Shown piece after piece: positions 46,920 to 51,907 of a DNA stretch of 64,000 bases. Where the stretch lies: NCBI GenBank assembly GCA_963767925.1, contig CAVYGB010000002.1:768001-832000 (forward strand), given 5' to 3'. The DNA comes from an uncultured delta proteobacterium (GTDB lineage: Bacteria; Myxococcota_A; Polyangia; Fen-1088). A model generated the notes under the pieces. The model was not told the DNA's origin. It worked only from the letters and a program-made list of their open reading frames with translations, and ran no database searches. Position numbers and translations under genes: made by a program. How positions within the stretch are numbered: the stretch's first letter is position 1; each line of letters starts with the position of its first letter.

Positions 46920-47597
46920 ATGAAGAGTCCCCAACGTCGTGCTCAACTCGCCTTGCCCCGGACGTCCGGGTGGGGTGGACGTCGGAAGGGGGCCGGCCGG
47001 CCTCCGATTCCCGGGCGGCGACGGCCGGCGCCGCATCGGGTGCGGGCGCCCCACAAGGGCGCCCACCCGTTGCACGTGACCTTGCGGGCCAGGTCGGGGT
47101 TGATCTCGCTGAGGAGCAAGCGAGTCTTCCAGGTGTTGCGGGATTGCTTTCGCGCCTCGAGCTCGGCGGCCTTCCGGGTTGTGCAGTTCTCGGTGCAGGC
47201 CGATCACGTGCACCTGCTGGTAGAGGCGGACGACAAGGCGACACTATCCTCCGGAGCCCGAGGGCTGGTGATCCGGAGCGCGCTGGCCATCAACCGGGCC
47301 TGCCAGCGCAGCGGACGAATCTGGGGGGACCGGTATCACGCGCGCGAGCTGACGACACCACGGGAGGTACGCACCGCACTCGTGTACGTACTCATGAACC
47401 ACAAGAAGCACGGCCTGCGCGACCGCGGGCACATCGACCCCTGCTCCTCGGCCCCCTGGTTCGACGGCTTCCGCGTCCACGTCGTGCCTCCGACCGACCC
47501 CCCGGTCACCTGCATGCCCCGCACCTGGCTCGCCGCCGTGGGCTGGCGACGCCGCGGCCTGATCGACCCCACCGAGTCCCCCAAGACCATTCAGTGA
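46920..47597 (+). CDS. REP-associated tyrosine transposase (HUH/Y1, RAYT-like)
   Basis: HVTLR, DHVHLLVEA (HUH motif), WGDRYH and YVLMN (probable catalytic Tyr); no tnpB nearby. Confidence 0.85.
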   Translation: MKSPQRRAQLALPRTSGWGGRRKGAGRPPIPGRRRPAPHRVRAPHKGAHPLHVTLRARSGLISLRSKRVFQVLRDCFRASSSAAFRVVQFSVQADHVHLLVEADDKATLSSGARGLVIRSALAINRACQRSGRIWGDRYHARELTTPREVRTALVYVLMNHKKHGLRDRGHIDPCSSAPWFDGFRVHVVPPTDPPVTCMPRTWLAAVGWRRRGLIDPTESPKTIQ

Positions 47598-47754
47598 ACG
47601 CGCCCGGCCTCGCCGCTGGAGGCGGGCTCTACACGGGGGAAGCGGGCGGCCCTCGGGTGGGAACAGGCGCCGGCGGAGATGGTCGGCGTGGCGTGGGCGC
47701 GCGGCGGGCGCGGAGCGGGGGGGCGGCGCGAGATGGTCGGGGCAGTGTCGGCGC

Positions 47755-47881
47755 GCGGCGGGCGCCGGACGAGGGCTGTGCGAGATGGTGGTGGGCGCAG
47801 CGTCGACGGGCGGCGGGCGCCGGACGAGGGCTGTGCGAGATGGTGGTGGGCGCAGCGTCGACGGGCGGCGGGCGCCGGACG
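47755..47881. repeat. About 55-bp tandem duplication at the inner end of the right arm
   Basis: GCGGCGGGCGCCGGACGAGGGCTGTGCGAGATGGTGGTGGGCGCAGCGTCGACGG x2, plus degenerate upstream copies. Confidence 0.85.
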
Positions 47882-48029
47882 GGGAAAGGGGCGGCGCTCG
47901 GGTGGGGGTGGGCCGTGGACATGCCGGGCTATGGACAGCGGACTGCCCACAGCCCTTGGACAAACGCGCAGACGCGTTTGCCCACATACCCACAGCCCCA
48001 GCTGCTACTCAGCTTCGCTTTTCAGAGGC
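47838..48029 (-). repeat. Right structured arm flanking the RAYT-like gene
   Basis: GTGGACATGCCGGGCTATGGACAG..GGACAAACGCGCAGACGCGTTTGCCC..CTACTCAGCTTCGCTTTTCAGAGG, inverted copy of the left arm. Confidence 0.85.
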
Positions 48030-48172
48030 AGAGGCAGAGGCAGAGGCAGAGACAGAGGCAGAGGCAGAGGCAGAGGCAGAGGCAGAGGCAGAGGCAGAGG
48101 CAGAGGCAGAGGCAGAGGCAGAGGCAGAGGGCAGAGGCAGAGGCAGAGGCAGAGACAGAGGCAGAGGGCAGA
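48023..48172. repeat. (CAGAGG)n microsatellite, more than 20 copies
   Basis: Directly visible; abuts the right arm. Confidence 0.95.
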
Positions 48173-48320: not shown

Positions 48321-48326
48321 GGGCAG

Positions 48327-48789
48327 CGGGGGGACTGACCGAAACGGCTTGCCGCTCGCGGCGGTCGGGACGAACGGCTTAATCACCCGGTCTGGTGGCG
48401 GGGGGACTGACCGAAACGGCTTGCCGCTCGCGGTGGCAGAGACGAACGGCTTCATCACCCGGTCTGGTGGCGGGGGGACTGACCGAAACGGCTTGCCGCT
48501 CGCGGCGGCAGAGACGAACGGCTTCATCACCCGGTCTGGTGGCGGGGGGACTGACCGAAACGGCTTGCCGCTCGTGGCGGCAGAGACGAACGGCTTCATC
48601 ACCCGGTCTGGTGGCGGGGGACTGACCGAAACGGCTTGCCGCTCGCGGTGGCAGAGACGAACGGCTTCATCACCCGGTCTGGTGGCGGGGGGACTGACCG
48701 AAACGGCTTGCCGCTCGTGGCGGCAGAGACGAACGGCTTCATCACCCGGTCTGGTGGCGGGGGGACTGGCCGAAACGGCTTGCGGCTCG
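48327..48789. repeat. 72-bp tandem repeat, 6 full copies plus a partial one
   Basis: GGGGGACTGACCGAAACGGCTTGCCGCTCGCGGCGGCAGAGACGAACGGCTTCATCACCCGGTCTGGTGGCG. Confidence 0.95.
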
Positions 48790-48797
48790 AGAGGGGG

Positions 48798-49670
48798 TTA
48801 TTCGGGTGCGAGCATGGATTTGGTGTGGGCGATGACGGCTTGGTTGCCGGTGCGGAGGCCCCATTGGGCGCCGAGGGCGGGGAAGGAGGCCCAGCGTTCG
48901 GCGGCGTGGTGTGGGAGGCCGGGCCAGGTGCGGCCTCCGGCGCGTTCGAACAAGGCGATCAGGCGGGCCAGGGACTCGGGGCCGAAGCAGCCGTGGAACA
49001 TGGCCAGGTCGATCGACGGGTCGGTCACCTGGGCTTCGGTCCAGTCGAGGATGCCGGTGACGGCGCCCTCTCCGTCGAGCAGCATGTGGCCGGGGTGCAG
49101 GTCGCCGTGGACCAGGGCCAGGTGGGGCGGCCAGCCCTCCTCGCTGTCGAGCCAGCGGTGCCAGCGCGCCCACAGGGCGTCCGTTGGCTGCAGCACCTCC
49201 CGGGTCTCCTCCATGGCCTTGCGCAGGGTCGCCCGCGATTCGGCCAGGTCGCGCACCGGCACGCCGGCGTTGCGGACGGCGTCGACCGGTACCGCCTGCA
49301 GGGCGGCGAGAGACTCTGCCATCGAGGCCAGGAAGCGCTCGGGCGGGGCCTTCTCGTTCATGTTCCAGATCGGCCCCTCTGCCCCGATGGTGACCGCCGG
49401 GGTGCCCGCCAGCCGCGGGTAGGCGATCAGATCGAGGGCGTGCACCCGCCAGTCGGGGACCGCCACCGGCATGCGCGGCTGGAGCAATCGCAGCACGCGC
49501 GCCTCGACCCGGGCCGACTCCACCACCTCCGGCCGCCGCGGGGTCCGCAGCACCCAGGCCTGGCCCGCCTCGTCGCGGGCGTGGACGACCCGGAAGTCGA
49601 GGCCGGTGCCGTCCACCTCCGGCGCGGCCGCCCCCACCTCGAGCCCGTGGCGTCGGGCCAGGGCGAGCAG
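48798..49670 (-). CDS. mph: Macrolide 2'-phosphotransferase domain, probably the C-terminal part of an HflX fusion
   Basis: LARRHGL, GLDFRV, WVLRTPRR, VPDW, HGDLHPGH and ILDWTEA; no start codon just before the conserved N-terminal segment. Confidence 0.85.
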   Translation of the reverse strand: MLALARRHGLEVGAAAPEVDGTGLDFRVVHARDEAGQAWVLRTPRRPEVVESARVEARVLRLLQPRMPVAVPDWRVHALDLIAYPRLAGTPAVTIGAEGPIWNMNEKAPPERFLASMAESLAALQAVPVDAVRNAGVPVRDLAESRATLRKAMEETREVLQPTDALWARWHRWLDSEEGWPPHLALVHGDLHPGHMLLDGEGAVTGILDWTEAQVTDPSIDLAMFHGCFGPESLARLIALFERAGGRTWPGLPHHAAERWASFPALGAQWGLRTGNQAVIAHTKSMLAPE

Positions 49671-51144
49671 AATCCGCCGCCGTCTCGGTGGGCGGCGCCG
49701 TGGCCAGCACCCGCCGCCAGCGCTGCAGGGTCTCGGGGAAGGCGCGCACCCGGAGCTGGGCGCCCGCTTCGTCGTAGGTCTCGTGCAGCACCCGGGCGCT
49801 GCTCCGCACCTCTCCCAGCAGCCGCCCCTGCGCCGGCGGCACGGTCAGCACGTCGTCGACCATGCGCGTGTCGAAGAAGGCGACGATGCGCGCGCGCAGC
49901 CGCCCGGCGTCCTCGGGGGCCAGCGCGCTGAGGAAGAAGCCCTCCGGCAGCTCGCGGGCCAGCGCCTCCCGCCCGGCGGCGTCGACCCGGTCCACTTTGT
50001 TGAACAGGACCAGGTACGGCACCGCCGCCGCCCCCACCGACCCCAGCGTCTCGCGCACCACCTGGAGCTGCTCGCGCCAGTGCTTGTCGGAGGCGTCGAC
50101 GACGTAGAGGAGCAGGTCGGCCTCCTGCGCCTCCTGCAAGGTCGAGTGGAAGGAGGCCACCACCTCGTGCGGCAGGCTCTGGATGAACCCGACCGTGTCC
50201 GAGACCAGGATGCGCGGGGCGGTGGTGGGGGCCAGCGCCCGCACCGTCGTCCCCAGGGTCACGAACAGCTCGTCCTGCACCTCGACCTCGCTGCCGGTGA
50301 GCGCCCGCAGCAGCGACGACTTGCCGGCGTTGGTGTAGCCGACGAGGGCCACCTGGGGCGCCTCGCCCCGCCGCTCGCGCTGGCTGGCCTCCAGCGTGCG
50401 TAGCCCCTCGAGCTCCCGGCTGAGGGCCGCCACCCGCCCCCGGATCTCCTGCTTGCGCAGCTCGACGTTGGTGTGGCCCCGCTCGCCGCGCCCGCCGCCG
50501 CCGCCCTCCCGGGCGGCCCGGTCCTCGTCCTCGCGCACGCGCGGCGCCTCGTAGCGCAGGCGCGCCAGCTCGACCTCGAGCCGGGCGGTCCGGGTGCGGG
50601 CCCGCGAAGAGAATACGCGCAGGATGATGTCGGTCCGGTCCGCCACCGGCGCGTCCAGGGTCTGCTGGAGCTGGTGGAGCTGGCCGGGCCGCAGCGGGCC
50701 ATCGATCACCACCAGCGGCGGCGGGTTGTCGGGCCCGCGCCGCAGGTCCTGCAGCTGGGTCGCCAGCTCTTCGAGCTGGCCGCTGCCGATCACGCCCGCG
50801 CCACGCGGGGGGCGCTTGACCACCCGCGTGTCGGCCACGCGCAGGCCCAGGCCCCGCACCAGCCGGGTCAGCTCGAGCAACGAGCCGTCGGATCCCCGCC
50901 ACCCCACCAGCACCGCGTCCGCCGGGCGGGCCGGGTCGAGCGCCTGCCTAGCGCGGGCGTCATCGGGAGACGGAGGCAAAGACGGAGAAGGAGGCAAAGA
51001 CGGAGAAGGAGGCAAAGACGGAGAAGGAGGCAAAGACGGAGAAGGAGGCAAAGACGGAGAAGGAGGCAAAGACGGAGAAGGAGGCAAAGACGAAGCGGAC
51101 GAGAAGGCACGGGCAGGATGGCCGGAAAGTGGACGGGTCGGCAT
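49671..51144 (-). CDS. hflX: GTPase HflX domain; the frame has no stop at the domain end
   Basis: IL..F..RART, EVELARLRY, GYTNAGKSS, DTVGFI and NKVD; AAGGAG RBS before ATG 51144. Confidence 0.9.
50965..51092 (-). repeat. In-frame 18-bp tandem repeat x7 (SLPPSP) in the hflX N-terminus
   Basis: GGCAAAGACGGAGAAGGA units on the + strand. Confidence 0.92.
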
Positions 51145-51383
51145 GGAAAGAGCTCCTTCGCTCGCGCGGGCGCAAGCGGGCGGGAAAAAGGCACGAGATC
51201 CTCGGCGGCACGCGGCGAATGAAACAGCCGCGCGGCGGGGCAATAGCCGGGCGCGAAAGAACCAGATACCTCCGCGCTCAGCAGTCTGCGCGGCCCGTCA
51301 GTGAGAGCGGGCCGGCACGAGCGGGGTGTCAGAGCCCTTCACAGGTTGCGAAGGCGGGCTCGACACTGGCGGGGCGGCGCTGT

Positions 51384-51410
51384 TCAGCGCAGCCGGAGGT
51401 AAGCGCGCAT
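51384..51410 (-). promoter_or_regulatory. Leader peptide uORF MRAYLRLR (putative macrolide-sensing attenuator)
   Basis: ATG CGC GCT TAC CTC CGG CTG CGC TGA, 240 bp upstream of hflX; complementary to 51267-51292. Confidence 0.7.
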
Positions 51411-51625
51411 AGTGGGCAAAACGTGACACCGATCGGTCGGTCGCGCAAGCCCGTTGTGGAAAGAGCCCGGCGCCGGGGCCCGGCTCTGCGGGCGCGCAAT
51501 CCGGCGACACCCGACGTGTCTTCCGGCCGCGACGCGGGATTGAACCCACACCGTCAGGTAGTAACCTGCATGTGGATGGCGGCGATGAACGACTCTGTCA
51601 GGTCACCCGCGCGGAAGGAGGCGCC

Positions 51626-51907
51626 ATGAGCGTGTTTCCGCACCGATGCCCCGCTTGCGGCTCACCCGCTTACATGGGGTTCAAGGACGTCGATTGCAGC
51701 AACCCGCATTGCCCCCACGCGGGGCCGACGGCGCAGGCGCGGCGGAAGAAGCCGCGCACCAGCAGCTTCACCTGCTGGAGCGCGGATCGCGGCGGCCCGC
51801 CCTGCACCGGCGTGGTGGTGGTCACCGACGGCAAGGGCACCTGCCCCCGCTGCGGCAGCCACTACGCCACCGGCCGCTCGCCCGGCAGCACCTCCTCGCG
51901 ACCCTGA
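51626..51907 (+). CDS. Small Cys-rich putative zinc-ribbon protein (93 aa)
   Basis: AGGAGG RBS; CPAC, CSNPHC, two further Cys and CPRC. Confidence 0.7.
   Translation: MSVFPHRCPACGSPAYMGFKDVDCSNPHCPHAGPTAQARRKKPRTSSFTCWSADRGGPPCTGVVVVTDGKGTCPRCGSHYATGRSPGSTSSRP

Follow-up and report, generated by a model that had tools for sequence, protein, structure and literature searches.

How is a locus to be read in which the frame of an HflX-type GTPase runs, without a stop, over a macrolide phosphotransferase (Mph) frame lying one base out of register? This arrangement is found on the minus strand of a 64,000-nucleotide (nt) stretch of DNA (the window; positions 768,001 to 832,000 of the forward strand of contig CAVYGB010000002.1, assembly GCA_963767925.1) from an uncultured delta proteobacterium (Myxococcota_A, Polyangia, Fen-1088), at window positions 48,798 to 51,144. 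The G+C content of the window is 72%. A first reading of the letters (the original prediction) had proposed an HflX-Mph fusion split by a single extra base. Taken as a whole, the locus is best explained by one HflX-Mph protein of ~781 amino acids (aa), preceded by a leader ending in Arg-Leu-Arg (RLR leader) and interrupted by an indel of the assembly, a reading that we consider likely.

A junction with one surplus base

Four features define the junction:

49672..51144, minus strand: HflX module of 491 codons, recognized by TIGR03156, Pfam and solved HflX and HflXr chains.
49671, minus strand: surplus base, a T on this strand, seen in the sequence, by tblastn and in the alignment with fused proteins.
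48798..49670, minus strand: Mph-type module of 290 codons plus stop, recognized by Pfam APH and by its match to MPH(2')-I.
48742..49671, minus strand: run-on of the HflX frame past the break, 310 codons, non-protein (0 Pfam families).

The HflX open reading frame (ORF) starts at ATG 51144 and stays open until the stop at 48742 (833 aa from TTG 51243, 851 aa from stop to stop); the HflX homology stops at 49672. The Mph frame is open from 49844 to its stop codon at 48798-48800, and its first ATG, GTG or TTG, the GTG at 49637, comes only after the Mph homology has begun at 49670. As originally proposed, no HflX stop follows the GTPase, the frame continuing into 310 aa without a Pfam match, and the N-terminus of the Mph has no start codon of its own, the first one lying inside the homology. 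The run-on overlies the Mph frame, in which the coding signal in the G+C content of third codon positions (GC3, 0.91) sits.

The size of the lesion can be given exactly. With P0001, the closest fused homologue (736 aa), tblastn aligns query residues 2-434 to the HflX frame up to 49672, and residues 435-735 to the Mph frame from 49670 on. The two pieces are collinear, and since they end and start at these positions, one base is in surplus and none is lost. The surplus base is 49671 (equivalently 49672, the other letter of the AA pair), which gives GAT-T-CTG on the minus strand, and zero residues are missing. Deletion of one A at 49671-49672 indeed yields the predicted continuous ORF of 781 codons (491 + 290). 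The identity to P0001 is about equal in both halves, 68% for HflX and 66% for Mph (tblastn). In a MAFFT alignment with 41 fused proteins, in which an X was placed at the break, the break column is a gap in 41/41, and the fused proteins have a junction motif in common (..RWR..LP..P-I/V-E-T-x-A-D / LL..AR.HGL).

A protein search with the Mph part, restricted to proteins >509 aa, found 41 long homologues. Thirty-nine of them are 717-759 aa long and combine the three HflX domains GTP-bdg_N, GTP-bdg_M and MMR_HSR1 with APH across the same junction motif; the remaining two (525 and 546 aa) are without the N-terminal domains. Named sources of the fused proteins are Chondromyces apiculatus DSM 436, Sandaracinus amylolyticus, Lujinxingia vulgaris and metagenome-assembled genomes (MAGs) of Bradymonadaceae, and their public label is merely ‘GTPase HflX’. 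Among species-representative genomes, in which 80 loci were kept from 239 relatives, eleven loci encode the fusion in frame (five Nannocystis, Chondromyces, a Vulgatibacter MAG, Lujinxingiaceae, Bradymonadales and two Myxococcales MAGs), one has a separate HflX gene directly upstream (Rossellomorea), and 68 show no HflX in the stretch examined around the Mph. Of 400 other genomes sampled evenly across the phylum, 16 contained a close Mph, which in eight of them lies in a frame of 733-839 aa; these eight all belong to one family (f29), and seven were confirmed as fused by motif. The original prediction had named separate ORFs at all homologous loci as an outcome that would undo it, and such a pattern was not found, 39/41 long homologues and 11/80 loci being continuous. 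As judged from these sequences, the fusion is a natural, real protein family. It was first presented as unknown among characterized systems, in line with which no description of it was found in the full-text literature (subscription journals and supplements being outside its scope).

A quick IQ-TREE tree was built from 81 Mph domains. Every fused form belongs to a single clade with 53 rows (Shimodaira-Hasegawa-like approximate likelihood ratio test, SH-aLRT, 99), made of Myxococcota, Bdellovibrionota and Bradymonadia, and the 41 stand-alone forms of this clade are scattered between them. On this tree, six changes between fused and stand-alone are needed. Because the well-supported branches force only one of these changes, a single origin followed by later fissions is neither shown nor excluded. 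A conserved operon around the fusion was considered and rejected, the neighbourhoods of nine fused loci being unrelated.

The Rossellomorea locus (Rossellomorea sp. BNER, L083:8630-10873) can be seen as an unfused, ‘Rosetta stone’ parallel to the fusion. There, a gene of the HflXr type is followed on the same strand, 36 nt on, by an mph gene; the HflX scores 494.8 bits to chain 8a57_D (next chain 268), and the downstream mph has its own Shine-Dalgarno (SD) sequence. This pair differs from the window in being two polypeptides, in a Firmicute, with a true HflXr type and no RLR leader within 800 nt, and the arrangement was met in 1 of 25 non-myxobacterial loci.

Could the window then hold two native abutting genes, HflX followed by Mph? 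Both halves do exist alone in other Myxococcota, as 41 of the 53 Mph genes of the clade and as 118 of the 120 best stand-alone HflX relatives, which carry the type-a loop described below, and they are adjacent in Rossellomorea. The HflX frame of the window, however, has no stop for 930 nt, the Mph lacks a start codon ahead of its conserved first helix, there is neither an SD sequence nor a spacer between them, and the whole is residue-for-residue collinear with the fused homologues. The chance that these are two native genes is judged to be close to nil.

Frame breaks in the assembly

The assembly consists of 13 contigs, with a completeness of 83.8%. Its rpoB gene is broken up into three frame pieces, at contiguous coordinates (G000:C8:2030930-2034994), that correspond to profile positions 3-311, 309-700 and 703-1238, and on direct reading the canonical rpoB sequence was seen switching frames. 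A second dnaE-like gene (C8:422425-424991) is also in three pieces; rpoC and the main dnaE are intact. A GC3-phase scan, which counts switches of frame on one strand where the upstream frame has no stop, identified 299 switches in 6.43 Mb of scored coding sequence, or 46.5 per Mb. In comparison, high-G+C control loci of other genomes gave two switches in 0.51 Mb (3.9 per Mb), so that the excess of stop-less switches is ~12-fold. The scan recovered three of five known shifts (the one of the window and both rpoB breaks; both dnaE-like ones were missed); an earlier, less sensitive frameshift scan had given 58 candidates and one of the five.

As 390 codons out of frame are incompatible with an essential gene, the excess is attributed to artefacts, and the frame breaks of this assembly are mostly of that nature. 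Taken at face value, the 12-fold excess would put the odds that any one switch is an error at roughly 12:1. The one-base break of the window is probably an assembly indel error as well, and not biology. The condition of the gene is consistent with this: the kinase half is undecayed (66% versus 68% identity to P0001), its catalytic residues are intact, and so are the leader ORF and the SD sequence. Given the many indel errors genome-wide, any frameshift finding in this genome needs read support. The read runs each contained 0.06 of the sampled words, and their contigs (80% likeness) gave no indel row at 49671 and none bridging it, which is uninformative. A GATC-methylation idea, raised by the fact that removal of the extra base would create GATC, was rejected, as no motif enrichment was seen near the 299 candidates.

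The original prediction had left the choice between a sequencing error and a recent inactivation. The first part is strengthened by the split rpoB and by the excess of switches, and the second is retained as the weaker rival. If the frameshift were real, the cell would make an HflX with a 310-aa nonsense tail and at best a truncated kinase from GTG 49637. The patchy distribution of the gene, not found in 40 relatives, would fit such a loss, as would the IS200-like transposase and the tandem repeats that adjoin it, so that the gene could be dispensable; control genomes, too, show such switches, at the 3.9 per Mb given above. Against this, no second lesion is present, the 290 Mph codons have kept their catalytic residues and their similarity to P0001, the upstream signals are intact, and in this assembly even rpoB appears ‘broken’. 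A real inactivation is considered unlikely.

A programmed +1 frameshift at GAU-U-CUG is another way of reading the same letters, in which a rare UCU would stand in the A site and the Leu-tRNA would read CUG one base on. UCU would be rare and CUG common in a genome of 72% G+C, the break falls exactly at the domain junction, and a metagenomic HflX (P0190) ends at the same motif. The 41 aligned fused proteins and the eleven fused loci are, however, all continuous at the junction; no slippery P-site pairing and no conserved stimulator were seen at the site, and many other frame breaks exist in the assembly. Programmed frameshifting is thus regarded as very improbable, and the assembly indel is kept as the probable cause.

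The two halves and their known relatives

The HflX half scores 304.3 bits with TIGR03156 (GTPase HflX; cut-off 216.75) over profile positions 17-348 of 351. Its Pfam order is GTP-bdg_N (PF13167), GTP-bdg_M (PF16360) and MMR_HSR1 (PF01926), and the domain order of HflX is complete, with the N-terminal domain, the helical middle, the G domain and the C-terminal domain. The G1, G3 and G4 motifs are present (GYTNAGKS, DTVGF, NKVD). Solved HflX and HflXr chains align over query residues 85-483, E. coli HflX (5ady) up to its residue 418 of 426. Their scores (mycobacterial HflX 204, HflXr 190 and E. coli HflX 178 bits) do not discriminate between them. The N-terminal extension contains one further feature:

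50966..51092, minus strand: 18-bp tandem repeat, 7.1 copies (99% matches), encoding (SLPPSP)n.

This repeat is absent from the homologues and could be either genuine or a repeat-length artefact of the assembly.

The genome encodes three HflX proteins above the TIGR03156 cut-off. They were sorted, under labels of our own, into types a, b and c, defined by the sequence of the NTD2 loop, which reaches the peptidyl transferase centre (PTC) in solved HflXr complexes according to an excerpt of PMC9638945. Type c reads GGIGGRGPGETKLE, type b GGIGGKGAGES.LELDRRK and type a GGGG(G)RG(E/G)(R/K)GH(T/S)N.EL.KQ. The HflX of the window is of type a, with the loop REGGGGGRGERGHTNVELRKQE, and the fused HflX proteins are type a or type-a-like in every case. 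The type also exists unfused: the 118 stand-alone relatives mentioned above (~430-450 aa) come from Archangium, Pyxidicoccus, Hyalangium and Polyangiaceae among others, and in Sorangium cellulosum So ce56 a type-a hflX lies ~780 kb away from the Mph gene. The HflX half is, by its loop, assigned to a distinct myxobacterial paralogue with a distinctive, predicted PTC-reaching loop.

Two known systems are close to this half. HflXr of Listeria monocytogenes (Lmo0762, PDB 8A57) is likewise an extra HflX-family GTPase beside housekeeping copies, with a tie to macrolides and a matching fold (189.8 bits). It differs in its loop, which is 2 aa longer there (excerpt of PMC9638945) with no such gain here, and which reads ..RGxGE..E.DRR there and GGGGGRGERGHTNVELRKQE here; the Myxococcota lineage and the C-terminal kinase set the window apart as well, in a comparison made by sequence and fold. 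Mycobacterial HflX (M. smegmatis and M. abscessus; 8VKW, 8VIO) is the best-scoring solved HflX and confers macrolide-lincosamide resistance by splitting stalled ribosomes, as stated in the available part of PMC11831132. Compared to it, the loop of the window is eight residues shorter (phmmer), no mycobacterial N-terminal extension is evident, and an Mph is fused.

The Mph half gives 124.5 bits with Pfam APH and 228.8 bits (E 1e-66) with MPH(2')-I (5igh), query residues 1-288 matching 12-298 of the 301 residues of the chain. Solved Mph chains score 182-229 bits over ~280 residues, and the aminoglycoside and capreomycin kinases APH(2'') and Cph at most 42 bits. The relation to MPH(2')-I/MphA (5IGH), MphH (5UXB), MphB and MPH-E thus extends over the full length and includes the HGDLHPGH and DW motifs and the bilobal kinase fold. 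All eight named NCBIfam Mph models, which are allele-level ‘exception’ models, stay below their cut-offs (176-237 versus 500-650 bits; the best is Mph(C), 236.9 versus 550). By these profiles the Mph part matches no named Mph; it also differs from the named enzymes in its separate clade of Myxococcota, Bdellovibrionota and Bradymonadia, and in having its N-terminal tail replaced by HflX.

The catalytic motif is intact (HGDLHPGH ... ILDW). Residues H188, G189, D190, H195, D209 and W210 are invariant in alignment A1, and across the 41 aligned fused proteins the catalytic His, Asp/Glu, His and Asp-Trp show either no variation or a conservation of at least 90%. D190, H195 and D209 are the equivalents of the MphH catalytic residues Glu196, His201 and Asp214 named in an excerpt of PMC5760710. 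From their motifs, both halves look active. The helix LLALARRHGLEV at the N-terminus of the Mph part aligns to residues 12-23 of solved MPH(2')-I. Independent translation of the Mph from GTG 49637, the other outcome that the original prediction had named as fatal to the fusion, would remove this conserved helix and is not supported. Stand-alone myxobacterial Mphs have their own ATG ~25 codons upstream and a motif, P-I/L-E/D-S..A-LL, that is common to the ‘linker’ of the fusion. Since the linker motif is already present in stand-alone Mphs, the fusion replaces only the variable N-terminal tail of the kinase.

The fused homologue P0001 was modelled with AlphaFold2 (41 sequences) at a predicted local distance difference test (pLDDT) score of 87.6 and a predicted template modelling (pTM) score of 0.83. 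The model is poor only at residues 1-16 and in the NTD2 loop (151-162), and the linker is confident. Foldseek matched the N-terminal half to ribosome-bound HflXr and HflX (template modelling score by target, TMt, 0.73-0.75) and the C-terminal half to Mph crystal structures (TMt 0.83-0.88); no solved chain among its matches spans both halves (score by query, TMq, <=0.45). Folded as two chains, the halves reached 0.46 (best of three controls 0.00), which carries the mark ‘weak support’. Of 157 solved complexes, 116 attained this mark, as did 2 of 215 mismatched pairs; a mark at <=0.60 was seen in only 18 of the 157 complexes, and in both mismatches. In the two-chain runs, at least 97% of the contacts agree and the partner pLDDT is at least 86. 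In the HflXr-50S complex (8A57), the C-terminal domain of HflXr contacts uL11 (excerpt of PMC9638945). Because this domain of HflX sits at uL11, the stalk base, the kinase would by analogy be placed at the rim of the intersubunit face, outside the tunnel.

The kinase-like half might also serve as a sensor of macrolides or of another ligand that gates the HflX GTPase, or be a kinase of a non-macrolide substrate. Its scores below every curated Mph cut-off would agree with this, as would the fixed domain arrangement suggested by the model (pTM 0.83; two-chain 0.46, ‘weak support’) and a fused protein, P0140, that has HGS in place of HGD and no DW. In the opposite direction point the catalytic residues, invariant or nearly so in 41/41 aligned fused proteins, the best solved matches, which are all macrolide 2'-phosphotransferases aligned over their full length, and the stand-alone members of the clade, which carry the same leader. 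A sensor or a kinase of other specificity appears improbable, and a macrolide kinase remains the preferred assignment.

P0140 (753 aa) belongs to a divergent fused cluster. With HGS..AH, it is without the catalytic Asp and also without the DW motif, so that its kinase is probably inactive; the fusion is retained even where catalysis may have been lost. P0067 (746 aa), of another divergent fused cluster, has an MphH-like HGELYAAH.

Leader, proposed function and surroundings

Upstream of the main gene, the following elements were identified:

51384..51410, minus strand: leader ORF MRAYLRLR-stop with an Arg-X-Arg motif, found by the RLR-stop ORF scan and direct reading.
51420..51448, minus strand: promoter-like TTGCGC-N17-CACGTT, ending 9 nt before the leader ATG (direct reading).
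51336..51354, minus strand: hairpin CCUUCGCA-ACC-UGUGAAGG whose 5' arm is CU-rich and whose 3' arm is GA-rich and SD-like (direct reading), possibly attenuator segments 1 and 2.
51182..51190, minus strand: CU-rich stretch CUUUUUCCC (direct reading), a possible anti-Shine-Dalgarno segment with weak support.
51153..51158, minus strand: Shine-Dalgarno AAGGAG, 8 nt before ATG 51144 (direct reading).

The leader ORF has eight codons, from ATG 51410 to TGA 51384, and lies 240 nt before the main gene. The promoter-like element would make it leaderless. Consensus promoter and T-rich terminator scans found none, and no Rfam family matches the window or the Nannocystis leader (one chance microRNA match, E 0.03). 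The five Nannocystis fusions have an almost invariant leader of ~280 nt with an eight-codon ORF (MAMFIRLR, MFAFIRLR, MVAFIRLR or MVFFIRLR), a conserved TTGCGC-N17-CATTCT-N9-ATG layout and an SD context, GCGAGCGGAGGAG, which that of the window, GCGAGCGAAGGAG, resembles.

Under a strict rule (an ATG or GTG ORF of 4-12 residues with an RLR-stop end within ~800 nt upstream), leaders were found at 9 of the 11 fused loci, at 24 of 41 stand-alone myxobacterial Mph loci and at 12 of 25 Mph loci of other phyla. The chance rate of this rule is ~0.1% (3/3000 and 5/4000 random windows of this genome), and control-locus windows gave 14/1522. A tenth fused locus (L026) has the leader MFLFMRFR. In 18 aligned leaders, only the Arg-Leu-Arg-stop codons are invariant. 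The leaders of the other phyla (L058-L093; Paenibacillus, Brevibacillus, Cohnella) end in (M/I)RLR-stop ~90-180 nt upstream, for example MGIAFMRLR and MGTASMRLR; chromosomal mph genes may have RLR leaders as a general trait that has drawn little notice.

The same kind of leader precedes stand-alone type-a hflX genes, in three of three Sorangium genomes (MATASLRLR, MAIAYFRPR, MAFAFFRPR) and in three of eight further sampled loci, at the same distance to the G1 motif as in the fusions. Sampled and named loci may overlap (L143 and L066 share a peptide), and these sets are not to be summed. An Arg-X-Arg-stop leader was found before none of the housekeeping HflX genes of types b and c taken together (0 of 18 in the first set and 0 of 14 in the sampled loci); the chance rate of this looser rule is 185/3000. 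Hairpins with a pyrimidine-rich 5' arm, most of them pairing CU-rich with GA-rich arms (e.g., GTCTTCC/GGAAGAC, CCTCC/GGAGG), occur in 27 of 33 leaders, at varying positions.

Similar short ORFs with Arg-Leu-Arg, upstream on the same strand, are described for Mef(E)L and Msr(A)L (MTASMRLR/K) and for Erm(D)L and Erm(K)L (MTHSMRLR..). In the available part of PMC4335068, the eight-codon Mef(E)L (MTASMRLR) is needed for induction by macrolides, and stalling at MRLR is described for erm(K) and erm(D). Some relatives of the present leader read MATASLRLR or MGTASMRLR. The differences are a kinase or GTPase gene downstream, Gram-negative hosts of 70% G+C, the absence of a visible SD sequence before the leader ATG, and here neither a T-rich terminator nor an Rfam match. 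By its sequence, which agrees with the class pattern of a short ORF (8-20 codons) with Arg/Lys-X-Arg/Lys, and by this analogy, the leader ORF bears the signature of a putative macrolide-dependent arrest peptide. It was no part of the original prediction, and its conservation lends independent support to the proposed function in macrolide resistance.

The predicted function is that of an inducible two-in-one macrolide resistance protein, coupling rescue and drug inactivation, where the substrate, the inducibility, the local action on the drug and the synergy of the halves are all presumed. A macrolide-bound ribosome would arrest on the leader ORF, and the arrest would remodel the 240-nt leader RNA and turn the main gene on. 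The HflX half would dock on drug-stalled ribosomes or 50S subunits and split or recycle them. The attached kinase, GTP-dependent as Mph enzymes are according to an excerpt of PMC5760710, would then phosphorylate the drug and prevent its rebinding. The leader, the kinase and the GTPase are met both as free modules and joined in a fusion, and in a Firmicute the GTPase and the kinase form an operon. A wider proposal, doubtful at present, is an undescribed modular system of myxobacteria in which a ribosome-tethered ‘catch-and-kill’ machine would couple rescue to inactivation in one cycle, a rigidly attached kinase phosphorylating the drug on its release, under an RLR-leader switch with the drug-bound ribosome as the sensor. 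Type a would be a third, independently specialized HflX lineage beside Firmicute HflXr and actinobacterial HflX.

Several observations weigh against the favoured reading of the locus as the gene of one inducible resistance protein broken by an assembly indel. Concerning the break, the attribution to an artefact is based on the overall error rate of the assembly; the extra base lies outside any long homopolymer, and within 100 nt of the 299 candidate shifts no enrichment of a k-mer, GAATC/GATTC, GATC, CCWGG or homopolymers was detected. P0190 (444 aa, from a metagenome) is, at 65% identity, the nearest stand-alone relative on the HflX side. Its sequence ends ..PPVETAADT, one residue beyond the junction motif, which may reflect a second broken copy, the end of a contig or a natural split; a metagenome scan for its contig found relatives of 32-41% only. 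As to the family, a search of 40 relatives within the same family or class did not recover the fused gene, and the neighbours of nine fused loci have nothing in common. Regarding function, the eight named Mph models remain below their cut-offs, P0140 has lost its catalytic Asp, and HflXr-style lengthening of the loop is absent, because the loop length (PR..E segment, 28 residues by hand count) is equal in all three paralogues of the genome. For the leader RNA, RNAalifold gave no consensus structure with 35 leader 3' ends. The mean pairing probability of the SD sequence was 0.72 versus 0.59 for shuffles (27 of 35 above their own shuffle mean, three clearly), and 0.50 versus 0.45 in the window.

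Resistance by target protection or rescue (HflXr, ABC-F proteins) is regarded as a strategy distinct from drug inactivation (Mph, Ere), and a conserved fusion would show that evolution couples them. It would offer a handle on the question of whether HflX-type factors dislodge macrolides or merely recycle ribosomes, and would be relevant to work on ribosome-targeting antibiotics. RLR arrest leaders would be extended to kinase genes across three phyla; neither type-a HflX nor an RLR leader before an mph gene was found described in the full-text literature, subscription journals being outside its scope. For annotation, the label ‘GTPase HflX’ on fused proteins and the mostly artefactual frame breaks of this assembly call for caution.

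Directly past the Mph stop, tandem repeats of 72 bp (6.5 copies, 96% matches), 6 bp (24.7 copies) and 55 bp (2.7 copies) were found:

48326-48789, 48023-48172 and 47734-47881: tandem-repeat block, with long spurious ORFs on both strands.

An IS200-like Y1 transposase domain (PF01797, 32.3 bits) is located at 46920-47594 on the plus strand, 1.2 kb from the gene. Together with the absence from 40 relatives, it hints at a variable or acquired region. On the other side, a Cys-rich ORF of 111 aa (51572-51904, plus strand; CPACG..CSNPHCPH..CPRCG, no Pfam match) is divergent and adjoins the same intergenic region as the leader. A further link to macrolides comes from Chondromyces apiculatus DSM 436, where a gene of the erythromycin esterase family (PF05139, 155.7 bits; L021:6721-8037, minus strand) lies 1.1 kb downstream of the fusion.

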